Origin: a virus
Lineage: Duplodnaviria > Heunggongvirae > Uroviricota > Caudoviricetes
Virus record (IMG/VR): IMGVR_UViG_2565956624_000004
Location: 1-11,728 of that record
Direction: 5' to 3' (one strand)
DNA length: 11,728 bases
The position numbers and the translations under genes are program-made. Under the pieces are notes generated by a model. That model was not told the origin of the DNA, searched no databases, and saw only the letters and a list, made by a program, of their open reading frames with translations. Below, one piece after another: positions 1 through 11,728 of the stretch; the stretch's first letter is position 1, and each line of letters starts with the position of its first letter.

Positions 1-195
1 TCTCATATCAGGGACTTGTTCGCACCTTCCTTAGCACGTTTCTGTGATGCAGCAGCGAAAGCGCAGGACGCTAACAAGCTGCGTGAAATATTTGGCAAAT
101 GCTGGAAATTACTACCGGAAGGATCGGAACATCGAATCAAGGCAAAAGATGTTTATGACATCCGGGTAGCAGAGCTTAACGGGGAGATGGGTTAA
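1..195 (+). CDS. hypothetical protein, 3' fragment (start lies upstream of window)
   Basis: Frame 1 is open from base 1 to TAA at 193-195 (...DVYDIRVAELNGEMG*). The stop overlaps the ssb ATG as TAATG, implying translational coupling. No recognisable motif in the 64 visible residues. Confidence 0.4.
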   Translation, partial: SHIRDLFAPSLARFCDAAAKAQDANKLREIFGKCWKLLPEGSEHRIKAKDVYDIRVAELNGEMG

Positions 196-656
196 TGAGT
201 TTAAATTCAATCACGCTGGGCGGGAATATCGGTAATGATATGGAGGTTCGCTACACACAAAACGGGAAAGCGATTGGTAGTTTTCCGTTAGCTGTAACGA
301 ATGGCTACGGCGATAATAAGCGGACAATGTGGGTCACTTGCCTGGTATTTGGTGAGCGTGCGGAAAAATTAGCGCCACATATCCGCAAGGGTGGAAAAAT
401 AGTGGTAAGCGGTCGCCTGGATGTTCGGCAATATGACCGGAACGACGGCACGAAGGGAACGGCGGTAGAAGTGGCGGTTAACGAATTTGAATTCATGAAC
501 GTTAACCAACAAGGCCAGCAGCAAGGCCAGCAGCAGAAAGCGCCACCGCCTCAAAATAATAACGGGAATGATGTCCCTCCTGATTTCGATGACGACATCC
601 CATTTGCTCCTATGGGGTTACAATATGGCAAAAGCAGGATCTACGCGCTATCTTGA
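195..656 (+). CDS. ssb: single-stranded DNA-binding protein (SSB, OB-fold) with an atypical C-terminal extension
   Basis: N-terminal OB-fold region closely resembles bacterial/phage SSB (ITLGGNIGNDMEVRYTQNGKAIGSFPLAV...WVTCLVFGERAEKLAPHIRKGGKIVVSGRL). Gln/Gly-rich linker (QQGQQQGQQQ) and acidic motif PPDFDDDIPF are present. The ORF reads 17 codons past DDDIPF before its TGA stop. Confidence 0.9.
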   Translation: MSLNSITLGGNIGNDMEVRYTQNGKAIGSFPLAVTNGYGDNKRTMWVTCLVFGERAEKLAPHIRKGGKIVVSGRLDVRQYDRNDGTKGTAVEVAVNEFEFMNVNQQGQQQGQQQKAPPPQNNNGNDVPPDFDDDIPFAPMGLQYGKSRIYALS

Positions 657-918
657 TGCGCCGCCGATTCCGCGAACAAAAGAGCAAGTTCTAAAAGAAG
701 CCCGTGATCAAATAGATCATGGGCTTTTTTTATGCGGCACGGCAGCGGAACGGATGGCAAAAAGATTTAGTGACCTGTACGCAAAACAAATATGGTTCGA
801 CAACTGGCAGGCAAGTTTTTATCCGCTGCAAAGAAAACCGGATATGCACTGGCCTGAATATGTCGATCCACGTATGCGCAAATATCGCGGGCGTATGGGC
901 CAGGTCATTAATGATTAA
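625..918 (+). CDS. hypothetical protein
   Basis: ORF 568-918 in the track; the first ATG is at 625 (MAKAGSTRYLD...), inside the 3' end of ssb in another frame. No motif recognised. Start is uncertain (568 by the ORF track, 625 by first ATG). Confidence 0.4.
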   Translation: MAKAGSTRYLDAPPIPRTKEQVLKEARDQIDHGLFLCGTAAERMAKRFSDLYAKQIWFDNWQASFYPLQRKPDMHWPEYVDPRMRKYRGRMGQVIND

Positions 919-930
919 TGAGGTGTTATC

Positions 931-1155
931 ATGATTGAAGAAAAAGAAGTAGACAAGGAAATTCCTGACGGTCGTGATGAGCTTATTTGTTTTGACGGCG
1001 GCCTGTATGAGTTCGAAACGTCTGCGGGGTGGCACGATAAATGGCCTAAGCCTACTCGCCAGGAATTAAGCGACCGTAAATCATTCGGCGAAGATGCCGA
1101 ACGGCTGGCTAATAACAAATGGCTTGATAAGTTAATTGCGGAGGGTGGCAAATGA
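931..1155 (+). CDS. hypothetical protein (74 aa)
   Basis: ATG preceded by GAGG-type Shine-Dalgarno; acidic N-terminus; no recognisable domain. Confidence 0.5.
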   Translation: MIEEKEVDKEIPDGRDELICFDGGLYEFETSAGWHDKWPKPTRQELSDRKSFGEDAERLANNKWLDKLIAEGGK

Positions 1156-1265
1156 GCTTTGCAAAAATTGCCGCATTGGCTGCGGCGTTGGCTGTCGCGG
1201 CGCTATATCTTAGCGTATCGCTTTATATTACGGTGGCGATCATCAAGCTGATTACTACTATGTGA
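1152..1265 (+). CDS. small hydrophobic single-pass membrane peptide (37 aa)
   Basis: Not in the ORF track (below size cut-off). Strong SD GGAGGG 6 nt upstream of ATG 1152; ATGA overlap with the preceding stop. Translation MSFAKIAALAAALAVAALYLSVSLYITVAIIKLITTM is almost entirely hydrophobic. Confidence 0.4.
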   Translation: MSFAKIAALAAALAVAALYLSVSLYITVAIIKLITTM

Positions 1266-1273
1266 GGTTAATC

Positions 1274-1393
1274 ATGAAAGTCGGTAAGGATATTGTGACG
1301 GTCGCGTTTTGCATTATTTGCTTCCTGTTTGTGGTTGTTTTTTGTGGCGCACTTGCTGCGGTGGTCAACTTTATTTTCAGTGGGTTGCTGTGA
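1274..1393 (+). CDS. small hydrophobic single-pass membrane peptide (39 aa)
   Basis: Not in the ORF track. SD GTGAGGT 5 nt upstream of ATG 1274. Translation MKVGKDIVTVAFCIICFLFVVVFCGALAAVVNFIFSGLL; its stop overlaps the next ATG (TGATG). Confidence 0.4.
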   Translation: MKVGKDIVTVAFCIICFLFVVVFCGALAAVVNFIFSGLL

Positions 1394-1665
1394 TGAAAAC
1401 GTGGGATGCAAAGGCTGGTGATCTTGTCGTATTGCCTGAATATCGTGATGACCCTGGATTGGTTGTACTGAACAAGATGTGCAACGATCTTGAGCGCCCG
1501 CTATTGGTTAAATATCTGGACGGGGAAATCATAGAGCCACGCTACTTTGATGAGATTGAACTAAAGGCCCGCAATGTTCGCGTTAAGCCGTTCCGGGATT
1601 ATGTTGAAGACCACTGGCGGAAATTGTTCGCCGGACTGAATGGGATGTTTGGCGTATGGCTATAA
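1393..1665 (+). CDS. hypothetical protein (90 aa)
   Basis: In-frame ATG at 1393 within track ORF 1309-1665, coupled to the upstream peptide gene by TGATG; the longer 1309 start would overlap two upstream genes. Confidence 0.5.
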   Translation: MKTWDAKAGDLVVLPEYRDDPGLVVLNKMCNDLERPLLVKYLDGEIIEPRYFDEIELKARNVRVKPFRDYVEDHWRKLFAGLNGMFGVWL

Positions 1666-1847
1666 AATTAGTGAAAGTTAAAGACCTGAAAGGCGGCGAA
1701 AAGATCCGCACGTGGTATGGCTATAAATTTATTGTCGCTGCCTTTTCTTTCGGGCCTGTGGGTCAAGTAACATTATTTGATGAAGAAGATGACGAGGTGG
1801 GTAAATGGCATCTTGAGCAATATGTCGAGGTGTTAAATGAAAATTAA
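1656..1847 (+). CDS. hypothetical protein (63 aa)
   Basis: ORF with a 10-nt overlap with the upstream gene; acidic stretch DEEDDE; no domain recognised. Confidence 0.5.
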   Translation: MAIKLVKVKDLKGGEKIRTWYGYKFIVAAFSFGPVGQVTLFDEEDDEVGKWHLEQYVEVLNEN

Positions 1848-2169
1848 ATTCCATAAAGCATATGATAGCGAAACAAACAAGCTATCACTATTTATTGAAT
1901 TCGAACGCCGGATCGTGGTTGTTCCCTGGGCACGGCGCTTTAATGACGCCGCCGGGCGGCGACAATTCGCGGTCGATATGCTGTTACGCGGTTGCGGCCT
2001 TATGCGCCCGCTATCTGATTTAAAACGGATGATGCCTGGATCGTTCGGTCAGATTGATGAAATAGAAATAAGCCAGGAAGAGCTAAAACGGGCGCGTGAT
2101 TTATTCCTTTCAAGTGAAGGAAACCCGTTCAACCCAGAAACTGAAATGAAATGGCATCATCCACTATAA
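1837..2169 (+). CDS. hypothetical protein (110 aa)
   Basis: ORF overlapping the upstream stop, in the same orientation as its neighbours; no domain recognised. Confidence 0.5.
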   Translation: MKIKFHKAYDSETNKLSLFIEFERRIVVVPWARRFNDAAGRRQFAVDMLLRGCGLMRPLSDLKRMMPGSFGQIDEIEISQEELKRARDLFLSSEGNPFNPETEMKWHHPL

Positions 2170-2181
2170 AGGATAAATATC

Positions 2182-2802
2182 ATGAACGACATCAAAACGG
2201 CTTATTCACTCGGCAGCGAAGGCATGTTAATCACTCGCTACACTGAAGACGCAAGTTTTCATGAAGTAGAAATTAAAGATTATCACGAAGTATTGAAAGA
2301 TATGGAAGCTGGCAAGTATGACGCTGATTTGAATCTGGCGTTACAGATTGTTGATATTGTGATGGATGCAAACATCCGCGATTATGTGTCTTTAAGTGCG
2401 GAAGAAAAAACATCGGTAGCTCGCTATGTCTTCTGTCTTGCTTTCGTAAAACGCATGGAAGAGGAATATGGGCGCGTACCAGTGCCGGAAGATATTGACC
2501 CGCTTGCGTTCGGAAGCGCTGTTATCTTCCCGCTTGATGAAAAACGTATGGGAAGCATTGCGCTGTATTCTATGCGTGGCATGATGAAAAAACTCTTTGA
2601 AGTTAAGGTGATGCAGAAATGTATTGATGAAGGCCACAAAGAGGAAGAAATAAAATTTTTCATGCCATTGCTTTACGTTGAAATGGTCGGCAATGATATG
2701 CGTGCAAATGATCTAGGTGTACAGGCGGCTATTGCGGTGCTTAATGATGCACGGAAAAACTCACAGCCAATGCCTGAACCGGAAAAACGTGTACTGCATT
2801 AA
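2182..2802 (+). CDS. hypothetical protein (206 aa)
   Basis: Long ORF with AAGGA SD upstream; acidic, likely cytoplasmic; no domain recognised. Confidence 0.6.
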   Translation: MNDIKTAYSLGSEGMLITRYTEDASFHEVEIKDYHEVLKDMEAGKYDADLNLALQIVDIVMDANIRDYVSLSAEEKTSVARYVFCLAFVKRMEEEYGRVPVPEDIDPLAFGSAVIFPLDEKRMGSIALYSMRGMMKKLFEVKVMQKCIDEGHKEEEIKFFMPLLYVEMVGNDMRANDLGVQAAIAVLNDARKNSQPMPEPEKRVLH

Positions 2803-2806
2803 CAGC

Positions 2807-2883
2807 GTGATTGCGATCACATAAATATACATTTTGTGTTGTGATCGCGTATCCGTTTTGTAAACCGAAATCAAAAGGTTTAC
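2807..2883. promoter_or_regulatory. putative operator/promoter region: inverted 9-mers GCGATCACA (2813-2821) and TGTGATCGC (2840-2848) flanking an AT-rich spacer, plus hairpin GTAAACC-N10-GGTTTAC (2860-2883)
   Basis: Read directly from the 99-bp intergenic gap between the stop at 2802 and ATG 2902. Both 9-mers contain GATC. No convincing -35/-10 pair could be fixed by eye. Confidence 0.25.
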
Positions 2884-2901
2884 GGCACGGAGGAAAACAA
2901 G

Positions 2902-3120
2902 ATGGCCCGCGAATACATGCTTTATTGCGTTGAGGGTGGCGTAGGCCATGATGCCTACGTCGCCGGGAAAGGCTATCCAGCCGATGAAGTGCTTTCTAAT
3001 ATGCACTTCCGGGAAAATGAAAGCCGGGTGTCTGTGTGGAAACGGTGCATTGATGGTATTGAGGTTGTAAGTATCGAACGGTATTTAGGCACGTTTGATT
3101 ACGGTGTTATTGAGGCTTAA
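2902..3120 (+). CDS. hypothetical protein (72 aa)
   Basis: ORF with GGAGGAAAA SD upstream; first gene after the intergenic gap; no domain recognised. Confidence 0.5.
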   Translation: MAREYMLYCVEGGVGHDAYVAGKGYPADEVLSNMHFRENESRVSVWKRCIDGIEVVSIERYLGTFDYGVIEA

Positions 3121-3218
3121 TTATGGACGACACATTGTTTTATATGTGCTGTTGCTGGGGTTTTATTGCCTTATGCCTGTTTATCAGGTGGTTTATTGAA
3201 TACCATATGAGGTAATGT

Positions 3219-3413
3219 ATGGAACAAGAAACTGATTATCGAATACCTGATAGCCTAAAATTAGTTGGCATTGGTTTCGGGTGTAGATTTGTATCTGACG
3301 CAAAAGGAGCGATTTATTTAATACGTCTTATTGATGGCGTTCAACATATAAGGCGACTAGGAATTTACATCAAAGCATTCAGAAGGGGTTATTTAAAAAC
3401 TCATGAAATTTAA
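3219..3413 (+). CDS. hypothetical protein (64 aa)
   Basis: ORF in the track; AT-rich codon usage differs from its neighbours; no domain recognised. Confidence 0.4.
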   Translation: MEQETDYRIPDSLKLVGIGFGCRFVSDAKGAIYLIRLIDGVQHIRRLGIYIKAFRRGYLKTHEI

Positions 3414-3606
3414 ACATTACATGGAATGGAAAATTCCAGAAGCAGCAACAAAGGCAGCGCCAGGAAATTATTCTGGCGTTTATTTTTATATGGATGGCAA
3501 ATGGTATTTCGGCAGCAGGCCGGATCACTATTATCAGGAAATATGCAAGCCTCACGTATGGGATATTAAAGAGCGCGTGAAAGGCGGGGTAATTGAGGAC
3601 GTTTAA
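3403..3606 (+). CDS. hypothetical protein (67 aa)
   Basis: ORF overlapping the upstream gene by 11 nt; Tyr/Trp-rich; no domain recognised. Confidence 0.45.
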   Translation: MKFKHYMEWKIPEAATKAAPGNYSGVYFYMDGKWYFGSRPDHYYQEICKPHVWDIKERVKGGVIEDV

Positions 3607-3607
3607 A

Positions 3608-3844
3608 ATGCTTAAGAGCTTTTTTAACTGGTTGGGGGCGTGGCTTTTGGCTACGCTTTTTGTTTTCCTGGCGGCCATGACTGTTATCGGTGTTATTATG
3701 CTGGGGGCTATGTTTATTACGTGGTCGCTTCCTGAATTTAACGACATTGGGAATATTCTTTTTGCAGCCCGCGCTTTATTGGCTGTTAGCGCATTCATTG
3801 GTTTTTGCTGGACTGCCGCGCCGGATTGGACTGACACATGGTGA
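3608..3844 (+). CDS. small integral membrane protein (about 2 predicted TM helices)
   Basis: ATG 3608 (track ORF begins at a TTG at 3593), GAGGA SD upstream. Two long hydrophobic segments (WLLATLFVFLAAMTVIGVIMLGAMFI and LFAARALLAVSAFIGFCW). Confidence 0.5.
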   Translation: MLKSFFNWLGAWLLATLFVFLAAMTVIGVIMLGAMFITWSLPEFNDIGNILFAARALLAVSAFIGFCWTAAPDWTDTW

Positions 3845-3848
3845 TCCT

Positions 3849-4082
3849 ATGGCCTTATTCAATATGTCAGAGCCGCAATTTAACGCCGTAAAGACTGCCG
3901 CCCGCGCCGCGCTTTCGGCCTGCAAAGCGGAGGTAGAGAAAAACGGCTACAGCGATAAAGCCACGCGGATGATATTAGATAAGCATTATCGCAAAGTCGC
4001 CCCACTAATCAGCATTGAGCGCTTTGTGTGGTTGGTGGGGTATTTAAACAACCGTTGGGGAACGAAACAGGATTATTTCTAA
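3849..4082 (+). CDS. hypothetical protein (77 aa)
   Basis: In-frame ATG 3849 within track ORF 3690-4082, directly after the upstream stop at 3844; no domain recognised. Confidence 0.45.
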   Translation: MALFNMSEPQFNAVKTAARAALSACKAEVEKNGYSDKATRMILDKHYRKVAPLISIERFVWLVGYLNNRWGTKQDYF

Positions 4083-4091
4083 GGGGGCGTA

Positions 4092-4631
4092 ATGAAAAGT
4101 GATTACGGCGGCAGCCATACGCCGAAAGAAATAAAAGACTTATGGCAAACGCCAAAACCCGTTTTTAGAGGAATGGATCGCGAGTTCGAATTTGTCGCAG
4201 ATGTGGCGGCAAACAGGGAAAACGCGCTCGTTCCTCGGTATATAACTGAAGAAATGGACGCGCTTACTTATCCGTGGGGAGCGGTGGCAATGCCTGGCGA
4301 ATATGTATGGATGAATCCACCATATTCAAACCCAGGTCCATTCGTTGATAAAGCAGCGCTCGAACATCAACGAAATCACATCGGTTGCGTAATGTTATTG
4401 CCCGCTGACGTTTCTGTTAGCTGGTTTATGAACGGCGTTGAGACGGCAAATGAGTGCCGATTAATCACGCGCGGGCGGCTGGCGTTTATCAATGCTGCGA
4501 CTGGTAAGCCAGTAAGCGGAAACAATAAAGGGAGCTTGTTTTTGATCTGGCATCCACGGTGCAGACATGAATGTATTTTCACGCAGATAACACGTAAAGA
4601 GCTATATGCAAGAGGTGCAGATAATGACTAA
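4092..4631 (+). CDS. phage-type DNA N6-adenine methyltransferase (Dam-like, NPPY motif)
   Basis: Translation has N-terminal WQTPKPVF and the catalytic motif IV NPPY (WMNPPYSN). This pattern and the ~180 aa size match the small phage Dam family (T1 Dam-like) as I recall it. Confidence 0.75.
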   Translation: MKSDYGGSHTPKEIKDLWQTPKPVFRGMDREFEFVADVAANRENALVPRYITEEMDALTYPWGAVAMPGEYVWMNPPYSNPGPFVDKAALEHQRNHIGCVMLLPADVSVSWFMNGVETANECRLITRGRLAFINAATGKPVSGNNKGSLFLIWHPRCRHECIFTQITRKELYARGADND

Positions 4632-5109
4632 TGCAGCAGATTTATTACGACTTGCAGCGGAAACAATAGAGCAAAGAGGTAAACAAAACGGTTACGACAG
4701 AAAAGAAGAAAAATCAGCGCCAAAAATAGCCACTATATACAACGCTAAGAAGGGGACAAATTTAACCCCGCTTGATGTATGGGATCTATTAATTTGTCTC
4801 AAGGAGGCGCGTTTAGAGGCCATTTTAGTTAATGAAAGCGATCCTACTGACACTTTGGTTGACTTGATTAGCTACAGCGCACTAAAAGCGGAGCAGATAT
4901 TAAACGATCAGGAGGAAGAACGGAAGAAAAAACAGTTCACTGCCGCCAATATTAATGATGGAATAATAAATGATGCAGCAATAACAAGCTGTAAGGGCTT
5001 GCCTCCTTCAATGCTTAACCCTCAATGTCGTTGTACTACTGATTCGCTTGATTTGAATTTTGACTTCAGTCGGAAGAGGGATAACCAAAATGAAAAAGGT
5101 GACAATTGA
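4624..5109 (+). CDS. hypothetical protein with low-complexity C-terminal half
   Basis: ATG 4624 with SD AGAGGTG 6 nt upstream (track ORF starts at 4606). Overlaps the methyltransferase stop. C-terminal half is N/D/K-rich low complexity. Confidence 0.5.
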   Translation: MTNAADLLRLAAETIEQRGKQNGYDRKEEKSAPKIATIYNAKKGTNLTPLDVWDLLICLKEARLEAILVNESDPTDTLVDLISYSALKAEQILNDQEEERKKKQFTAANINDGIINDAAITSCKGLPPSMLNPQCRCTTDSLDLNFDFSRKRDNQNEKGDN

Positions 5110-5593
5110 CAGGTTACTGGCCTGCGTTTATGTCGCCGTTTTCGTGATCATCAACCTTATTGTTAACCATTGCGGCCCGTGGGTAATTCCGATCACCACG
5201 GTAGCCGCAGTGTGTGTCAATATGATGATCCGCGACTTTCTGTTATATGACGGCGGCCTGAAATGGTCGGCTACAACGTGCGCAGCCGCTGGCGCAATCA
5301 CGGTGCTGATAAACTACGATGCCGGAATGGTGGCGGTCGCGTCATTCGTTGCGGTTGTTTCCGGTGCGCTTATATCTGGCGGCGTTTACCGGGTTTTACC
5401 TGGTGATTTCGATTCCAAACGCTGGCCTGCAAATATAGCTTCAGCCATTGGAGATGCGTTAATTTTTCCCACGCTATCGTTTATGGCATTTATGCCGGAA
5501 ATATCAGCTATGCAATTCATCTCAAAAATGGCAGCGGTAACGGTGATCACTATCATCATGCGCCGCTATTTTACGTTTGAGGGCAGAAAATGA
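5090..5593 (+). CDS. integral membrane protein, possibly VUT/YhhQ-family (queuosine-precursor-transporter-like)
   Basis: ATG 5090 (track ORF starts at TTG 5060). Several hydrophobic helices. The segment IASAIGDALIFPTLSFMAF resembles the conserved C-terminal segment of YhhQ/DUF165 proteins (TASTLFGNVSDTLAFFFIAF) as I recall it. The family assignment is tentative. Confidence 0.45.
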   Translation: MKKVTIDRLLACVYVAVFVIINLIVNHCGPWVIPITTVAAVCVNMMIRDFLLYDGGLKWSATTCAAAGAITVLINYDAGMVAVASFVAVVSGALISGGVYRVLPGDFDSKRWPANIASAIGDALIFPTLSFMAFMPEISAMQFISKMAAVTVITIIMRRYFTFEGRK

Positions 5594-6354
5594 GTGGGCT
5601 TAAAAATTGGGTGGTGTGGTCGCTGTACGACGGCAGCGGGTACGCCGTTAAAGATTGGGCTGACGCTGGCTATAAGTGTTATTGCTTCAACTATGACGGC
5701 GCTAACCACGGCGACTATGAAGGCGTAAAAATCATTCATCCGAATATTGAATACGTTAACGTATGGATTGACAGCCATTTCCTGGTGATGTTCTCCCCTG
5801 ATTTGTCTGTTTATCCAGATCCTGACATTATTCTGGCCTTCCCGCCATGCGACCATCTAGCCGTGTCCGGCGCTCGTTGGTTTGCCAGCAAGCGTGAAAA
5901 AGATCCTGACTTCCAGGTGAAGGCGGCATATAACGCAAAACTGGTAGAAACGCTGGCTGACATGTATCACGTCCCGTGGATGGTGGAAAATCCGGTTGGC
6001 GCACTGTCAACGTTATGGCGTAAGCCGGATTTTATCTTCAACCCGTGCGCTTACGGTGGCTACCTGCCTGAAGATGACAAACATCCTGCCTTCCCGGAAT
6101 ACATCGCCGACCGCGACGCATACACGAAGAAAACTTGTATCTGGTGCGGGAATGGATTTAATCAGCCGCTATTCCTGCCTGTGCCAATGCCTGATGAATG
6201 GGAAGACAGTAAGCAGCACGCTAAGTTAGGAGGAAAGTCGAAACGCACTAAGATGATCCGCTCACTAACGCCGCGTGGCTTTGCCCGTGCTGTATTCCTG
6301 GCTAACGACCGGGCCATCAATCGTACTACGCTCAACCGCGTTTTACCGGACTGA
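5590..6354 (+). CDS. compact DNA (cytosine-5)-methyltransferase-like protein
   Basis: Motifs in canonical C5-MTase order: motif I-like SLYDGSGYA, motif IV FPPCDHLAVSGA (Pro-Cys dipeptide, but PCD instead of PCQ), motif VI MVENPVGAL (ENV-like), motif IX-like RSLTPRGFARAVFL (RxLTPRExARLQGF pattern). At 254 aa it is short for the family. Confidence 0.6.
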   Translation: MSGLKNWVVWSLYDGSGYAVKDWADAGYKCYCFNYDGANHGDYEGVKIIHPNIEYVNVWIDSHFLVMFSPDLSVYPDPDIILAFPPCDHLAVSGARWFASKREKDPDFQVKAAYNAKLVETLADMYHVPWMVENPVGALSTLWRKPDFIFNPCAYGGYLPEDDKHPAFPEYIADRDAYTKKTCIWCGNGFNQPLFLPVPMPDEWEDSKQHAKLGGKSKRTKMIRSLTPRGFARAVFLANDRAINRTTLNRVLPD

Positions 6355-6376
6355 AGTTTACAAAATGGCGTCATTG

Positions 6377-6437
6377 TGTGATACAGGTCACATAATGGCG
6401 CTTTTCGTCTTGTTTACGTGTATCCATTTTGTATACT
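6377..6437 (+). promoter_or_regulatory. putative sigma70-type promoter (-35 TTGTTT 6410-6415, 16-bp spacer, -10 TATACT 6432-6437) with an upstream CRP-like palindrome TGTGA-N6-TCACA (6377-6392)
   Basis: Hexamers and palindrome read directly from the 160-bp gap between the stop at 6354 and ATG 6514. The palindrome matches both half-sites of the CRP consensus and is centred about 60 bp upstream of the predicted start site. Confidence 0.35.
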
Positions 6438-6513
6438 TCAAGCAAACGAAATGCTCTTTAAAAATCCGGCAGCGCTGAAATGCGTAGAAATCACCTTAAA
6501 GGGAGGGAGCATT

Positions 6514-6690
6514 ATGTCTTTTGATAATTACCAATGGCATGACGACTATGAACGAGAAAGCGTCATGCGTGCAATGTGCAATGTATGCAGCACAAAGAAA
6601 GGAGGCTGTAACGAGTGCAACGAATGCTTAGATCATTGGCTAAGGGCCGGACACACCGAAAGGCTGAACGAAACAGAGAATCAAAAATAA
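6514..6690 (+). CDS. small Cys-rich (zinc-ribbon-like) protein, NinF-like
   Basis: ATG 6514 with strong SD GGGAGGGAG upstream (the track's longer 6418 start lacks this). CxxC...CxxCxxC pattern (MCNVCSTKKGGCNECNEC). Sits immediately upstream of ninG as NinF does in lambda; the NinF resemblance is from memory. Confidence 0.45.
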   Translation: MSFDNYQWHDDYERESVMRAMCNVCSTKKGGCNECNECLDHWLRAGHTERLNETENQK

Positions 6691-6704
6691 TAGGGGTGGT
6701 TTTT

Positions 6705-7310
6705 ATGCAGAACCCTAAAAAACCAATAAGACGCCGTTGCAAGTGCTGCGGCGTTTTTTTTGAGCCTAAATATCACAATCAAACGTGGTGCAGTGATGAG
6801 TGTCTGGAAGAGCTGAAGTTTGATCAGCTATGCCGCGACCGTGAGAAGGCTATGAAGGCTATGGAACGGAAGAAACGCCGTGATAGCCAGCGGGAAGAAC
6901 GCAACCGGAAGCGGAAGCAGTTAAATCCGCGTAGTTATTGGTTGAAGCAGGCACAAGCGGTATTTAATGCCTATATCCGCGAACGTGACGCGGGTCAGCC
7001 GTGCATATCATGCGGGACTTACTATTACGAACAATGCGGAGCAGATGCCGGACACTATAGAACGGTTGCCGCCGCCGGGCACCTTCGTTTTAACGAGGAT
7101 AATTGCCACAAACAATGCAGGCACTGCAACCAGACATTAGATGGCAACATAGAAGCATATCGCCCAGCGCTGATTAGGAAAATTGGCCTTGCCAGGGTGG
7201 AAGCGCTGGAGAACAACAACGAAACTCATAAATGGGCGATCGAAGAATGCAAGGAGATCATAAAAGTCTATCAGGCTAAATTGGACGCCTTAAGGAGAAA
7301 GGCAGCATGA
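6705..7310 (+). CDS. ninG: NinG/Rap-family recombination protein (structure-specific endonuclease)
   Basis: In-frame ATG 6705 with SD GGGGTGG. Translation carries NinG hallmarks: N-terminal RRRCKCCGVFF, PRSYWLKQAQ, PCISCG, DAGHYR, LRFNEDNCHKQCRHCN, and C-terminal IEECKEI. Confidence 0.85.
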   Translation: MQNPKKPIRRRCKCCGVFFEPKYHNQTWCSDECLEELKFDQLCRDREKAMKAMERKKRRDSQREERNRKRKQLNPRSYWLKQAQAVFNAYIRERDAGQPCISCGTYYYEQCGADAGHYRTVAAAGHLRFNEDNCHKQCRHCNQTLDGNIEAYRPALIRKIGLARVEALENNNETHKWAIEECKEIIKVYQAKLDALRRKAA

Positions 7311-7708
7311 ATGAATATACTTTTAGCCTGCCTTACCCGCCATCGAACAATAAATATTACCGGCATTCGCGCGGTTTCCACTATATAAGCAAGGAAGGTA
7401 AGGAATACAGGGAGCAGGTAAAAGACATTATAAAACTGCTTAATCTGAAAATTAATCTTAAGTGTAGGCTATCAATAACGGTGTATATTGCACCGCCAGA
7501 TAACAGACGCCGCGATATTGACAATGTAGGGAAGGCATTATTTGACGCTATAACTTATTCCGGTTTTTGGGCTGATGATAGCCAGGTTGACGCAATGAAA
7601 TTTGTCCGCTGCCGGAAGGTAAAAAGAGGGCGATTGTTTATCAAGGTACGCGAACGCGGCGACCTGTTACCGGATATTAACGAATACTTGACTAATATGT
7701 GGTGGTAA
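7307..7708 (+). CDS. rusA: RusA-family Holliday junction resolvase
   Basis: Translation matches RusA along its length: YTFSLPYPPSNNKYYRH, PPDNRRRDIDNVGKALFDAITYSGFWADDSQV, RGRLFIKV. ATGA overlap with ninG. Confidence 0.85.
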   Translation: MNEYTFSLPYPPSNNKYYRHSRGFHYISKEGKEYREQVKDIIKLLNLKINLKCRLSITVYIAPPDNRRRDIDNVGKALFDAITYSGFWADDSQVDAMKFVRCRKVKRGRLFIKVRERGDLLPDINEYLTNMWW

Positions 7709-7710
7709 CA

Positions 7711-7893
7711 ATGAAAAACGAAATTAAAGATCTGCAAATAGATATTCAGCGCGACGAGCGTGATTTAGCCACAGTCCGACAAATTCAGGCTTTTCACATG
7801 CGAGAATTACTTGCACTGAAAGAGTTTGAAAGAAAGCTAGTGCAATCAATATCTGATCGCAAAAGACTGGTTGCACGTTACGGGGGTAAATAA
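7711..7893 (+). CDS. hypothetical coiled-coil protein (60 aa)
   Basis: ATG 7711 three nt after the rusA stop; charged, helical-looking sequence. Occupies the small-ORF slot often found between rusA and Q in lambdoid prophages. Confidence 0.45.
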   Translation: MKNEIKDLQIDIQRDERDLATVRQIQAFHMRELLALKEFERKLVQSISDRKRLVARYGGK

Positions 7894-8615
7894 TGAATTT
7901 GGAATCTATTCTTAAATTCCACTTCCCAAAATCACCGCGTTTGTCAGATGAAAGCCGGGGCACGTCCCCGGATGCGCTTAATACTACGGATGCGCTAACT
8001 GCCGCTGGTATGGCGCAATCGCGCGTAGAGCTTGGTTATAGCGCTTTTCTGGGAAAGATGGAACTATCACAAGCCGAAAAACATAAGGCCGTAGTTTTGC
8101 TTATAGAGCGTTTAAAGGCTATGGCAAAAGATTATGAATACGTTATGGAACTGGACGAGGCTAAACGCAATGATCTCATTATTCTTGTTGCCGTTTTCGC
8201 GTTTCGGGATTATTGCCAGAGTGCCGCGACGGAAAAAACTTGTATGGAGTGCGGCGGATATAAATTTACGTTTGACGAATACGGAGAAAAACACCTTTGC
8301 AAAAAATGCAAGGGGCATGGGAAGGTTCTCAATCATTGTAAACAATGCAAGGGCCGTGGCGAAGTACCGGATAAAGCAGCCAGCGAAGCGGCGGAAATGC
8401 CAGTGTTCAAAACGTGCCAGCATTGCGGCGGGCGCGGGTACTCGCGTTTCCCCGTAGATCTTGTGCGTCAGGCCGTTAATCAGCTTGTTTTTCCGGTAAG
8501 CCGATCAACCTGGTGGAAAAAATACCGGGTTTTCTATGAAGACGCCATAGCGGAGCTATTCAAAGAAGAGGGCCGCGCGGAAAGTGAAATCAAACGAGTG
8601 ACACGGGGTGAATAA
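7893..8615 (+). CDS. putative Q-like antitermination protein with DnaJ-type zinc finger
   Basis: Four CxxCxGxG repeats (CMECGGYK, CKKCKGHG, CKQCKGRG, CQHCGGRG), i.e. a DnaJ CR-type zinc finger. Position directly downstream of ninG-rusA is where Q sits in lambdoid phages. The Q assignment is inference from position plus zinc-binding architecture. Confidence 0.45.
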   Translation: MNLESILKFHFPKSPRLSDESRGTSPDALNTTDALTAAGMAQSRVELGYSAFLGKMELSQAEKHKAVVLLIERLKAMAKDYEYVMELDEAKRNDLIILVAVFAFRDYCQSAATEKTCMECGGYKFTFDEYGEKHLCKKCKGHGKVLNHCKQCKGRGEVPDKAASEAAEMPVFKTCQHCGGRGYSRFPVDLVRQAVNQLVFPVSRSTWWKKYRVFYEDAIAELFKEEGRAESEIKRVTRGE

Positions 8616-8815
8616 TGGATAAGCTGGAAATAAACGATCAGTTTGCCGTTATCTTATTTGAAGATAAAACAGGCGGCGCATGGTGTAAGAAAGTCACTGG
8701 CGCGGAAGCGCGTTTAATATTGGGTATGGCAAGCGCGTTAAATGAAGGCGAATTGCCAGCCATCCCTATTAAGCCTGTCAAAATTTACAAGCGGGGTGAC
8801 GATGATGAAGCCTAA
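8615..8815 (+). CDS. hypothetical protein (66 aa)
   Basis: ORF whose ATG overlaps the upstream stop (TAATG); acidic C-terminus; no domain recognised. Confidence 0.45.
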   Translation: MDKLEINDQFAVILFEDKTGGAWCKKVTGAEARLILGMASALNEGELPAIPIKPVKIYKRGDDDEA

Positions 8816-9074
8816 ACTAAAAGAACATCTATTTGCAAAGCTGGTTAATGACCTGACATTATCCGCGCGGTTGTGCCGTGATACACAACAATTGAGGGCG
8901 TGGATAGCAAGGGATTTAAAAAAATATATTGAGCCTGGCGGGCCGGGTGGCGAAATCACGATGGACGAAGCCATCAAGCGCCGTTCGGCTGAATGGTCAG
9001 TGAGTAACACCGGATTAACCGGATACATTGAAGGCTATAACGACTGTTTACAGGATCATAGCGATGGCAAGTAA
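8805..9074 (+). CDS. hypothetical protein (about 89 aa)
   Basis: In-frame ATG 8805 (alternative 8802) with SD GGGGTG 6 nt upstream, within track ORF 8742-9074; no domain recognised. Confidence 0.45.
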   Translation: MKPKLKEHLFAKLVNDLTLSARLCRDTQQLRAWIARDLKKYIEPGGPGGEITMDEAIKRRSAEWSVSNTGLTGYIEGYNDCLQDHSDGK

Positions 9075-9375
9075 AGACCTGCATTTGAATCTGAAAGGGG
9101 AATATTTCCACGCCATATGGACTGGAAAGAAGGTGGAGGAATACCGGCTTTATAATGACTATTGGCGTAAACGTCTGGAAGGGCGGGAATATGAACGCCT
9201 GATTATTAAATGGGGATACCCTGCCAACCACGAAAAACACAGGATTATTAACCTTCCTTATTTTGGGTACGAAGTAAAAACTATCACTCATCCATTATTC
9301 GGCCCTGATCCTGTTAAGGTATTCGCAATTAAATGTGACAGAAATTGGATGTTGAGAGGTGAAAATGAAAAGTAA
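9064..9375 (+). CDS. putative ASCH/PUA-like domain protein
   Basis: In-frame ATG 9064 with AGGA 8 nt upstream. N-terminal pattern LNLKGEYFHAIWTGKKVEEYR resembles the ASCH signature (hydrophobic strand, then G-K-K-x-x-E-x-R). Tentative. Confidence 0.4.
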   Translation: MASKDLHLNLKGEYFHAIWTGKKVEEYRLYNDYWRKRLEGREYERLIIKWGYPANHEKHRIINLPYFGYEVKTITHPLFGPDPVKVFAIKCDRNWMLRGENEK

Positions 9376-9580
9376 CCGCAAGCGCCTTGTAAGGGCGTAC
9401 GACAAAGCATTAAAGGCTTTTGATGATCTGCGACACAATAAACGCCAGCGCCGCAAATGGGCGCGTATGCTTGTTTATGAGTGGCATTATTCTGATGCTT
9501 TTATGGAAAGCGCACCGCTATTAACACAAGAACAAGCCGACGAAGTGGCTAACGATAACGTTTATTATATGATGTGGTGA
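9365..9580 (+). CDS. hypothetical protein, paralog A of a tandem pair
   Basis: ATG 9365 (track ORF starts at GTG 9359). MKSNRKRLVRAYDKALKAFDDL... ends ...DNVYYMMW. Clearly homologous to the next gene. Confidence 0.5.
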   Translation: MKSNRKRLVRAYDKALKAFDDLRHNKRQRRKWARMLVYEWHYSDAFMESAPLLTQEQADEVANDNVYYMMW

Positions 9581-9584
9581 CAAT

Positions 9585-9806
9585 ATGAAAAGTAACCGTA
9601 AGCGCATGATAAGAGCATATGATAAAGCGTTAATGGAATTTGACATACTACCACGCAGCAAGCGCCACCGCCGCCAATTTGCGAGATATATTTTTCATAT
9701 ATGGCACGATGCTGATTTCTTTTTTGATGCCAGATATATAACACAGGAAGATGCTGATAATATAGCTTACGATAACGTTTACTACATAATGAGTGAGTGT
9801 AATTAA
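9585..9806 (+). CDS. hypothetical protein, paralog B of a tandem pair
   Basis: MKSNRKRMIRAYDKALMEFDIL...DNVYYIMSECN; N- and C-termini conserved with paralog A, central region diverged. Confidence 0.5.
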   Translation: MKSNRKRMIRAYDKALMEFDILPRSKRHRRQFARYIFHIWHDADFFFDARYITQEDADNIAYDNVYYIMSECN

Positions 9807-9807
9807 T

Positions 9808-10173
9808 ATGCAAATAATCATTGATTACCTTTGCCACGCTGTAAATACTCTTTTTGGTTTTTATCAACAACCATTCCTCAAAGAATGGGACGAAATGCTT
9901 AATGACATCATTGATAAAGGGTTAATAGTTGAGGTTGGCAAGCTAACGATAAAATTTAATTACGAAGGCAAAGAATATGAAATATGGGTAGGTAATAGAT
10001 GGTACTCATACGGGCATATTTATTCAATTGGCGGCAAATACATTAAACGTAGCCAGGAGTTCAGGCCGCGATTCCGCACAATGCGCCGCCTGCGTGACCT
10101 GCATATGAATATATTTGAAAATCAGGAAGCGTGTGAACTATTCAAGATCTACGGGGATAAATCATGGAGCTAA
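9808..10173 (+). CDS. hypothetical protein (121 aa)
   Basis: ATG 9808 two nt after the upstream stop (track ORF starts at GTG 9793); no domain recognised. Confidence 0.5.
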   Translation: MQIIIDYLCHAVNTLFGFYQQPFLKEWDEMLNDIIDKGLIVEVGKLTIKFNYEGKEYEIWVGNRWYSYGHIYSIGGKYIKRSQEFRPRFRTMRRLRDLHMNIFENQEACELFKIYGDKSWS

Positions 10174-10394
10174 AAATCTGGCAGGCTATTGACGTGGTTG
10201 ATAATGAATTGTCTATGTTCGCCACTAACGGGAAACGCGTTGTGATCGCTACATGGACACGTAACCATGATGATATTGCTTTTCGTCGCAAGGCTGCGGA
10301 ATGGCTTTTCTCAGATGGCGGCTACACGATGAACATCGCACAGCTTGCCAGAATGAAAGATGAAAAGCTGGTGGACAGCTACACAACTGCGTAA
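10164..10394 (+). CDS. hypothetical protein (76 aa)
   Basis: ORF overlapping the upstream gene by 10 nt; no domain recognised. Confidence 0.45.
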   Translation: MELKIWQAIDVVDNELSMFATNGKRVVIATWTRNHDDIAFRRKAAEWLFSDGGYTMNIAQLARMKDEKLVDSYTTA

Positions 10395-10404
10395 TGGGGT
10401 GAAT

Positions 10405-10635
10405 ATGCGTATCTATGAACACAAGCGGGATAAAACCCGCTTTTTTGTTCGTGCTGGCGTGGCGTACCAGTATCACGAATGCGGTTACATTGAGGCGCTT
10501 GCTTACGATCTGGATTTTGAGCAAGAAAAGGCATGGTTCGATTTTAAAATTTACCGGAAGCGCAAACCAACACGCGACGAGCGCCACGCTATCCGGGACT
10601 TTTTAATCAGTATTGAGCGCTGGGGGACAGATTAA
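10405..10635 (+). CDS. hypothetical protein (76 aa)
   Basis: In-frame ATG 10405 with GGGGTG upstream, within track ORF 10360-10635; basic protein; no domain recognised. Confidence 0.4.
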   Translation: MRIYEHKRDKTRFFVRAGVAYQYHECGYIEALAYDLDFEQEKAWFDFKIYRKRKPTRDERHAIRDFLISIERWGTD

Positions 10636-10862
10636 TGAAAGTAAAATTCTTGCACGATCACGGTTATCCGTCATTGAAACAGGTTGTTGGTAAGGTGGTT
10701 GACGTCGTTCATAGTGATAATGTCACTTGCATGATTAACGGTGCTGACCTAATTGCCGCTGGCGCTGATGATCATTACATTAATCCTGCATGGTCGTATA
10801 CGTTCAGCCTGGGAGACTTCGTTGGCGACAAGGGGCGCGGGCTGGAAGTGGTCGAGGGTTAA
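10635..10862 (+). CDS. hypothetical protein (75 aa)
   Basis: TAATG overlap with the upstream gene; no domain recognised. Confidence 0.45.
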   Translation: MKVKFLHDHGYPSLKQVVGKVVDVVHSDNVTCMINGADLIAAGADDHYINPAWSYTFSLGDFVGDKGRGLEVVEG

Positions 10863-10866
10863 CATC

Positions 10867-11115
10867 ATGGACGTTTACGAAGATCTATACCTCCATACAG
10901 ACATAAACACTTTTTATTTTCTTAAAAACGGCGTCGTGTATCGCAGTGACGACGGGGTGATAATGAAAGAGTGGTTATTTAAGCGTAAAGACCTACTCGA
11001 CGATCTGGTTTTTGCCGGGATATTTCGTAAACGTCCGGCTAACCTGGAAGAAGAAATGTTGATAGAGGTATATCAAAATGAAAATCAGGGTAAGTTATTT
11101 CCGGGCGAAAGATAA
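10867..11115 (+). CDS. hypothetical protein (82 aa)
   Basis: In-frame ATG 10867 within track ORF 10753-11115, 4 nt after the upstream stop; no domain recognised. Confidence 0.45.
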   Translation: MDVYEDLYLHTDINTFYFLKNGVVYRSDDGVIMKEWLFKRKDLLDDLVFAGIFRKRPANLEEEMLIEVYQNENQGKLFPGER

Positions 11116-11329
11116 GGCAACGGGAAAGCAGATGGCGATCCTGGTTAACGAGGCGCAGTACATGTTTGTCCTTCAGCCGTGGTGTGTTGTAGACCTTAAC
11201 GACAATTGCCGCCGTCACGCTGCGCGGAGCGCTGTAGGCATGAAAGGATGGCAGCCGCGCGACATGGAAAACTATTGTGAATGGAAATTGGTGGCAAAAT
11301 ACACGGTAGACTATAAAGGGGTTTTCTGA
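11078..11329 (+). CDS. hypothetical protein (83 aa; alternative start 11132)
   Basis: ATG 11078 has GAGGT 8 nt upstream but overlaps the preceding gene by 38 nt. An internal ATG at 11132 would avoid the overlap. Two CxxC-like pairs (CVVDLNDNC, and one Cys in ENYCEWK). Confidence 0.4.
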   Translation: MKIRVSYFRAKDKATGKQMAILVNEAQYMFVLQPWCVVDLNDNCRRHAARSAVGMKGWQPRDMENYCEWKLVAKYTVDYKGVF

Positions 11330-11586
11330 TGGAACATTTATATTTTAATGTAATTCAGACTCGCGATCTCGACAAATTCAAAGACGGTAAGGTTTATTGC
11401 GGGGTTCAGATTTACGGTGCGCCTGGTGGTGATGGTGCAATGGCTATAACTGGCGATGATGGTAAGTTATATTTTGCTTATGCAAGCCATATCAATAACG
11501 CCTCTGGCTTGTATATTTATCGCATCGTGCATGATTTCCGTGAGATCGCTGTACTTCATGCTCGCGAAGGTAGTAAACCGGAATAA
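11329..11586 (+). CDS. hypothetical protein (85 aa)
   Basis: ATG overlapping the upstream stop (TGATG); Gly-rich segment GAPGGDGAMAITGDDG; no domain recognised. Confidence 0.45.
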   Translation: MEHLYFNVIQTRDLDKFKDGKVYCGVQIYGAPGGDGAMAITGDDGKLYFAYASHINNASGLYIYRIVHDFREIAVLHAREGSKPE

Positions 11587-11612
11587 ATGTGATCTACCAC
11601 ACAAAGTTTACG

Positions 11613-11640
11613 AAATGGCATTGTTTAGGCAGTGCCATTT
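11613..11640. promoter_or_regulatory. inverted repeat AAATGGCA-N12-TGCCATTT in a 96-bp intergenic gap (operator, weak terminator or RNA hairpin)
   Basis: Read directly; 8-bp perfect arms with a 12-nt loop, followed by TTGTTACATATAAG, which contains -10-like hexamers. Only a short T run follows the stem, so a strong intrinsic terminator is not supported. Confidence 0.2.
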
Positions 11641-11682
11641 TGTTACATATAAGCCACGGAAAGACGAATGGGAGGTAAGAAG

Positions 11683-11728
11683 ATGAACGCTAACGCTAAG
11701 GAAGGTGCGAATAAGCGGGGAAATTCTT
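11683..11728 (+). CDS. hypothetical protein, 5' fragment (continues beyond window)
   Basis: ATG 11683 with strong SD GGGAGGT 6 nt upstream; MNANAKEGANKRGNS... open to the window end. Confidence 0.35.
   Translation, partial: MNANAKEGANKRGNS

Follow-up and report, generated by a model that had tools for sequence, protein, structure and literature searches.

A Q-lambda-family antiterminator gene whose stop codon overlaps the next gene, and a candidate late promoter module before the holin gene in mEp021-like coliphages

The antiterminator Q is a textbook regulator, and its gene together with the adjacent promoter PR', pause element and terminator is treated as a single cassette. This adjacency is used for finding late promoters, for example those of Shiga toxin genes. 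Where, then, does Q act when its gene is followed by no intergenic DNA at all? The question is raised by a prophage sequence (IMG/VR record IMGVR_UViG_2565956624_000004, positions 1 to 11,728; hereafter the window, meaning the whole stretch of 11,728 nt that was analysed), in which an open reading frame (ORF) in the Q position downstream of rusA (nt 7893–8615, 240 aa) ends in a stop codon that overlaps the start of the following gene. Both the ORF and the overlap are as described in the initial annotation, which had left three possibilities: a promoter embedded in coding sequence, a promoter further downstream, or a protein that is not a canonical Q. The analysis presented here indicates that the gene specifies an ordinary Q-lambda-type antiterminator, predicted to be functional, and that its target would be a promoter/pause/terminator-like module lying kilobases downstream, immediately before the holin gene, with Q acting in trans. 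From the comparative evidence we give this reading a probability of about 0.6.

The protein is a canonical member of the Q-lambda family and is already annotated as such, as it shares 97% identity with gp37 of coliphage mEp021, labelled 'putative late gene regulator Q'. The profile search against Q families that had been suggested initially matched Pfam PF03589 (1.6e-28; 99.1 bits against a cutoff of 26.7), which represents the Q-lambda family (PMC9388147), and a second match was to PHROG 127, 'anti-termination protein Q-like' (4.8e-78, residues 1–238). No match to the Q21 (PF06530) or Q82 (PF06323) families was returned by the Pfam scan. Lambda Q (PDB 7UBM chain Q) was matched colinearly over its full length in two pieces (HMMER, 1.1e-37), residues 1–114 corresponding to lambda 1–114 and residues 148–238 to lambda 117–207, the first piece being free of gaps in both HMMER and MAFFT alignments. 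An AlphaFold (AF2) model built from 25 homologs, with a mean predicted local distance difference test (pLDDT) score of 81, shows a four-helix body with a helix-turn-helix motif and a zinc-ribbon arm. A Foldseek comparison of this model with the PDB gave eight significant matches, all to Q-lambda structures, and the best of these was 7UBN_Q (E 2e-14, template modelling (TM) score 0.75), from the NusA-containing engaged loading complex. In lambda Q, residues 1–44 become the torus, residues 61–113 and 153–207 form the body, and residues 114–152 form the arm, a zinc ribbon contacting the DNA site (PMC9388147). Residues 11–30 of the window protein have low pLDDT, as expected of a segment that is disordered when off RNA polymerase (RNAP). 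G39 and T237 are invariant, and the equivalent lambda residues, G39 and T206, are sites of antitermination-defective mutations (PMC9388147). Together with the PF03589 and PHROG 127 matches, the colinearity with 7UBM and the Foldseek result, these conserved functional residues lead us to reject the suggestion that the protein is not a canonical Q. The gene is under strong purifying selection among relatives (ratio of nonsynonymous to synonymous substitution rates, dN/dS, 0.05–0.08).

What had drawn attention to the protein was a cysteine-rich region described as four CxxCxGxG repeats of a DnaJ-type zinc finger. Four CxxC motifs are indeed present (C117MECGGYK, C136KKCKGHG, C149KQCKGRG and C175QHCGGRG), but only motifs 2–4 are exact CxxCxGxG repeats, since in motif 1 a K replaces the final G. 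None of the eight cysteines varies among the 25 homologs, so the pattern has not arisen by chance. Motifs 3 and 4 (C149/C152 and C175/C178) align with the two CxxC motifs of the lambda Q zinc site; motifs 1 and 2 are carried by a 33-residue insertion relative to lambda Q, which opens and extends the zinc-ribbon arm (Table 1). As the lambda site corresponds to motifs 3 and 4, the extra pair probably forms a second, neighbouring zinc site. The cysteine-rich domain of DnaJ has a nested arrangement, in which motif 1 pairs with 4 and motif 2 with 3; in the Q protein the pairing is probably 1 with 2 and 3 with 4, and not of the nested type.

The two added motifs account for the DnaJ-like look of the protein, which could otherwise be taken for a DnaJ-like chaperone, or some other zinc-finger regulator, occupying the Q position. 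Matches to DnaJ models do exist, but they fall under the curated cutoffs, both for Pfam DnaJ_CXXCXGXG (6.5e-6, 26.8 bits against a gathering score of 32.7) and for the DnaJ NCBIfam models (15–24 bits against cutoffs above 300). Neither a J domain, nor a G/F region, nor a DnaJ C-terminal domain was found in the Pfam scan. Given that the protein aligns to Q-lambda over its whole length and that its fold matches Q-lambda only, a chaperone identity is refuted, and the wider idea of a non-Q zinc-finger protein at this position is scarcely credible. The DnaJ resemblance therefore survives as a likeness of motifs inside the zinc-ribbon arm, and not as a DnaJ domain. Nor is the arm peculiar to this phage group. 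Homologs from Citrobacter, Serratia, Xenorhabdus and others have insertions of 33–75 aa in this position that carry motifs 1 and 2 as well, and four CxxC motifs are present in most of the 80 members of the family sampled from other genera. In this sample, which is skewed towards query-like sequences, the four-CxxC, two-knuckle arm is the common state, and lambda Q represents the short form. No other part of the protein varies as much as the insert within the mEp021-like group, where it occurs as two very different alleles (L093-L136) in proteins of 240 and 242 aa that are otherwise 85–98% identical.

The TAA stop codon of the Q gene (nt 8613–8615) shares its last A with the next ATG (nt 8615–8617; context gaaTAATGgat), leaving no intergenic DNA after the gene. 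Fifty mEp021-like loci were compared (44 IMG/VR contigs, mEp021, mEp554, MagusPhagus, two divergent contigs and the window), and T[AG]ATG was found at the Q stop in all 50, although the gene after Q is of at least four kinds. A third lineage, L137, with a Q protein 45% identical, has a 4-nt overlap at the Q stop. The situation elsewhere in the family is very different. The comparison set comprised 80 Q-lambda-family loci from other Enterobacterales (30–40% identity), 74 of them with at least 250 nt of sequence after the stop. A hairpin with a T-run ends within 250 nt of the Q stop in 73 of these 74, with offsets clustering at about 100–160 nt, and an overlapping next gene was seen in none (0/74). 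A -10-like hexamer followed after 5–7 nt by AAYRAT lies 21–65 nt past the stop in 60 of 77 other family loci, compared with a chance expectation of 0.014 per such interval. The second hexamer is mostly AACGAT, as in lambda, and the other loci differ in their hexamers but not in layout. Examples are TTGACT-17-TAAATT-N6-AACGAT (lambda), TTTACT-16-TAATTT-N6-AACGAT (Serratia), TTGACA-17-CATCAT-N6-AACGAT (Xenorhabdus) and TTTACA-17-TAATCT-N6-AATGAT (Citrobacter). An adjacent PR'/pause/terminator cassette is thus close to universal in the family. In the published description of the Q-dependent cassette, the Q gene adjoins PR', a sigma-dependent pause element and a terminator (PMC9388147); this adjacency is seen in none of the 50 loci of the mEp021-like lineage. 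Its absence is a feature of genome organisation and not of the protein, and is a trait of the lineage.

A conserved site of similar layout is found at a distance. Downstream of Q, a single TAWAAT-N6-7-AAYAAT site occurs in every relative with enough sequence, between 1.9 kb (mEp021) and 6.7 kb past the gene. In each case a GC-rich hairpin and T-run come next, then a Shine-Dalgarno sequence and the holin gene, which the site directly precedes. The module takes the form AAACAA..GAT-TAAAAT-N7-AACAATGCGAAA-hairpin-TTTTT, in which AACAAT is the pause-like hexamer. The fixed bases of its consensus, AAACAAAYRGAT-TAAAAT-AYTNYCT-AACAATGCGAAANTGTA...CCCGGC...GCCGGGTTTTT, are invariant or nearly so among 30 unique variants, and the module keeps its position despite variable genes on either side. 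Divergence between genomes is 5.9% in its 47-nt core, compared with 19% at synonymous sites of the adjacent holin gene and 40% in the 30 nt upstream, which indicates that this non-coding core is under constraint. In the contig L005, whose Q protein is 49% identical, the holin gene is preceded by a module that differs in sequence but not in layout (AAACAA...TATAAT-N6-AATAATGGCAAAG...hairpin-T9, the AATAATGGCAAAG region giving AATAAT), and this aligned hexamer-for-hexamer with lambda PR' and with the canonical relatives (MAFFT). The strict module motif has a chance expectation of 0.012 per 110-nt intergenic region, and in 2.9 million IMG/VR viral contigs the module was restricted to mEp021-like contigs, apart from one unrelated coding match. 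A module sitting right after a Q gene in other phages was sought in IMG/VR and not found. Based on its conserved layout, position and constraint, we propose that the module is the PR'/sigma-pause/tR' unit of the group, served by Q in trans; it is probably the late promoter and the Q target. The Q gene of this lineage appears to have lost its adjacent target, with a conserved promoter/pause/terminator-like module before the holin gene instead, and we regard this arrangement as a real new variant of the cassette.

By homology with Q-lambda, Q would bind a DNA site at the late promoter and load onto RNAP held at a sigma70-dependent, promoter-proximal pause; the nascent RNA would then be threaded through a nozzle formed by the Q N-terminus, and terminators would be read through. 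In the mEp021-like phages the stop codon of Q runs into the start of a variable block (1.9–6.7 kb) of small accessory genes, and the putative PR'/pause/terminator module would be acted upon from this distance, directly upstream of the holin gene. If so, the intervening genes would belong to the early transcript, which is antiterminated by the N-like protein Gp17.

Several observations weigh against a promoter role for the module. Its -35 hexamer is not conserved, reading TTGTRG or TCGCGC in different variants and AAGCGC in L005, and a generic promoter scan calls no promoter there. Its pause-like hexamer is AACAAT at 7 nt past the -10, compared with the family-typical AACGAT at 6 nt. The gene for a virion protein (homolog of nt 11,078–11,329) lies upstream of the module, which would fit better with late transcription starting nearer to Q. 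The Q arm alleles did not co-vary with the two upstream variants of the module, and so lend no extra support to the pairing of Q with the module. The promoter assignment comes from comparison of related genomes, and in this prophage the module would lie beyond the end of the window. Wider scans were also negative. A generic sigma70 scan of nt 7300–11,728 and of mEp021 found sites no more often than in shuffled controls and none at any candidate, an Rfam search of the window and the mEp021 locus gave no match, and the QBE (Q-binding element)-like string AAACAAAYRGATTAAAAT had no match in the window even at 3 mismatches.

The lack of a good -35 would sit more easily with a scheme that has no dedicated Q-dependent late promoter, in which the late genes are expressed by read-through of the Gp17-modified early rightward transcript and Q is dispensable or helps elsewhere. 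Only terminators interrupt the tightly packed single strand between Q and the lysis genes, and Gp17/nut antitermination is documented for mEp021 (PMC11893012). A dispensable Q, however, is difficult to reconcile with its strong purifying selection (dN/dS about 0.05) and with the retention of both the torus residues of the RNAP exit channel and the zinc ligands. The non-coding module 5' of the terminator also shows less divergence than synonymous sites nearby, and two diverged lineages have it with the -10/pause arrangement specific to the family. Expression of the late genes purely by read-through is accordingly judged improbable. The late promoter might instead be embedded at the Q stop, where the one candidate in the window for such a site was found (nt 8598–8638; Table 1). 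The small genes after Q would then be late genes under Q control, with the pre-holin module serving only as a terminator or as a second place for Q to load. The string has an exact lambda-type AACGAT 18 nt past the Q stop, and its -35 hexamer fits the consensus at 5/6 positions, about 0.006 matches being expected by chance in 60 nt. A virion-associated protein gene (PMC11893012) also lies between Q and the holin gene. Yet it occurs in only about 27 of the 50 relatives, and is absent from the viable phage mEp021, the L110 type, L005 and L137, all of which keep the overlap. At 3/6 matches its -10-like hexamer is weak, and in seven genomes synonymous drift has turned it into CAAGTT, while GTGACA and AACGAT are explained by conserved codons (Val-Thr of Q, and Asn-Asp); nothing like the AAACAA element of the module lies upstream. 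The string may be a coincidence or a vestige, and as an embedded or vestigial PR' candidate it is unlikely to serve as a functional late promoter, so that a late promoter embedded at the Q stop appears quite unlikely.

The initial annotation had also pointed to the gap at nt 11,587–11,682 as a possible place for a promoter further downstream. It is the sole sizeable non-coding stretch after Q in the window and is present in 35 of 49 relatives. However, what it holds is a terminator-like hairpin (Table 1), annotated as terminator T10 in mEp554, and scans found no promoter-like or pause-like site in it. The gap is missing, along with the downstream gene, from 14 of the 49 relatives including the viable phage mEp021, and a late promoter there is very unlikely. 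A downstream promoter therefore stands in principle, with the pre-holin module of complete relatives as its probable location and not this gap. A palindrome, TGTGATCTACCACACA (TGTGA...CACA; nt 11,588–11,603, and nt 10,055–10,070 in L001), lies just 5' of the gap hairpin, and its mEp554 version is a perfect TGTGA-N6-TCACA, resembling a CRP or operator site. A second intrinsic-terminator-like hairpin with T-run, AAGCGGGATAAAACCCGCTTTTTTGTT (nt 10,423–10,450), lies inside the ORF at nt 10,360–10,635. The hairpin is found in 48 of the 49 relatives of E. coli type, is annotated as T9 in mEp554, and in mEp021 lies only about 260 nt past Q. Inspection by eye and a motif scan of nt 10,164–10,423 revealed no convincing promoter/pause layout. 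A further proposal is a fully split cassette, in which Q would be made from the early transcript and act purely in trans over 2–7 kb on an atypical target, with a -10 and pause-like element and without a -35, or in which Q would also load at nt 8598–8638; as a whole this is unlikely. With loading at both places, Q would control the whole accessory block, including the virion-associated gene, as a 'pre-late' operon in which it loads twice in succession, and either form of the split cassette, if true, would relax the textbook rule that Q and qut are one adjacent unit.

The pre-holin module is not visible in the window because the window ends in an IS5 element before the lysis region is reached. 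The end of the element forms the final 29 bases (nt 11,700–11,728), inserted at CTAA, and nt 11,695–11,728 are 100% identical to the IS5 copy of phage P1. The insertion was found in none of 48 relatives, and it disrupts the prophage between Q and the lysis genes. The genes upstream, on the plus strand, are ninG (nt 6615–7310; Pfam NinG, 3e-67), rusA (nt 7307–7708; Pfam RusA, 1e-16) and a 64-aa ORF (nt 7699–7893), followed by the Q gene, and the gene order of the window is that of mEp021, mEp554 and MagusPhagus. The segment from nt 7000 to 11,728 shows 86–90% identity to MagusPhagus, mEp044, mEp554, mEp013 and mEp010 over 80–94% of its length, the first four of them over 83–94%, and aligns with mEp021 and mEp515 over 59%. 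The window is thus part of a prophage of the mEp021-like (mEpimmI) coliphage group. This group is described in PMC11893012, which characterises the N-like Gp17 of mEp021 and its nut sites and mentions a 'Q-lambda-like' protein; its searchable text yielded no description of a late promoter or of Q being separated from it. The same source reports an experimentally demonstrated terminator, 't5', which we do not equate with the pre-holin terminator and do not use as evidence.

The first gene after Q, specifying a 66-aa protein that begins MDKLEINDQF, is conserved among most relatives, but mEp021, the L110 type and L005 have other genes in its place. The mEp021 gene adjoining Q at the common TAATGGA junction (L002, nt 7616) is a homolog of the window ORF at nt 10,164–10,394. 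The equivalent of nt 8615–10,163 is therefore missing from mEp021, which suggests that modules have been exchanged exactly at the stop/start overlap. The genes after Q are labelled as hypothetical proteins in the annotations of mEp554, mEp021 and MagusPhagus, and the block equivalent to nt 8615–11,586 varies from 1.9 kb (mEp021) to 6.7 kb in relatives. Within it, the neighbouring 73-aa ORFs at nt 9359–9580 and 9585–9806 are paralogs (57% identity) and represent a tandem duplication. The ORF at nt 11,078–11,329, encoded between Q and the putative late promoter, is a homolog of mEp021_41, a protein found in mEp021 virions by mass spectrometry (PMC11893012).

Table 1. Features of the Q gene and its surroundings in the window (nt positions of the window).
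Feature	Position	Strand	Basis
Q gene, 240-aa Q-lambda-family antiterminator, ortholog of mEp021 gp37	7893..8615	+	Pfam, PHROG, PDB, Foldseek
Residues 1–44, counterpart of the part of Q-lambda that forms the RNA-exit-channel 'torus' on refolding	7893..8024	+	alignment with lambda Q
33-residue insertion (residues 115–147) relative to lambda Q, with CxxC motifs 1 and 2	8235..8333	+	HMMER; MAFFT places the gap likewise
Cysteine-rich region, four CxxC (C117/120, C136/139, C149/152, C175/178)	8241..8438	+	homolog alignment
Promoter/pause-like string GTGACA-16-TAAGCT-N7-AACGAT across the Q stop	8598..8638	+	motif scan
TAATG, Q stop overlapping next start	8613..8617	+	read from sequence
66-aa gene	8615..8815	+	PHROG 35000, 5e-40; translation probably coupled to that of Q
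Some 13 small ORFs, all on the Q strand, between Q and the lysis cassette	8615..11586	+	ORF list
Intrinsic-terminator-like hairpin and T-run within an ORF	10423..10450	+	AAGCGGGATAAAACCCGCTT then TTTTGTTCGT
Gap content: palindrome TGTGATCTACCACACA, then terminator-like hairpin and TTTTGTT	11588..11644	+	RNA fold, -26.9 kcal/mol, z -3.9
First five codons of next phage gene (mEp554_60 homolog), cut at CTAA by IS5	11683..11728	+	comparison with uninterrupted mEp554

A common lineage of gut coliphages thus breaks the adjacency of Q and its promoter in all 50 genomes sampled, and annotation rules that assume that the promoter follows Q fail for mEp021-like phages. The variable accessory genes after Q would be predicted to be early rather than late, and the pre-holin module marks a precise candidate site for the uncharacterised mEpimmI late promoter.

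The closest well-studied counterpart is lambda, for which Q structures are available (PDB 4MO1, 7UBJ-7UBN). The two Q proteins share about 35–39% identity, full-length colinearity, fold and the zinc-ribbon CxxC pair, and in both phages the gene comes after ninG and rusA. The lambda zinc site is made of two adjacent motifs, a 'shuffled zinc ribbon' (PMC9388147), whereas the window protein has two further CxxC motifs in its arm insertion. In lambda the Q gene is followed by PR', qut and tR'; in the window nothing of the kind intervenes before the overlapping ATG. The candidate target also departs from lambda in detail, with AACAAT 7 nt past the -10 and a weak -35, against AACGAT at 6 nt, and with a terminator about 20 nt past the pause-like element, where the lambda terminator lies about 190 nt downstream of the start. 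Q21 and Q82 have the same role and genome position in lambdoid phages (PMC9388147). DnaJ (PF00684) has the CxxCxGxG repeats in common with the window protein, three of them exact and one partial. A Pfam architecture of PF27659, PF03589 and PF00684 is already recorded for four-CxxC Q-lambda-family proteins. Such proteins in prophages of Citrobacter, Serratia, Xenorhabdus, Enterobacter and Kluyvera have the same arm with a variable insert, and in those prophages, unlike the window, the promoter, pause-like hexamer and terminator lie within about 130 nt of the Q gene. The nearest match in organisation is mEp021 (MH706966), in which NinG, RusA, the small ORF, Q and an overlapping next gene follow one another as in the window, the prophage differing in its longer accessory block and in the IS5 element at nt 11,700.

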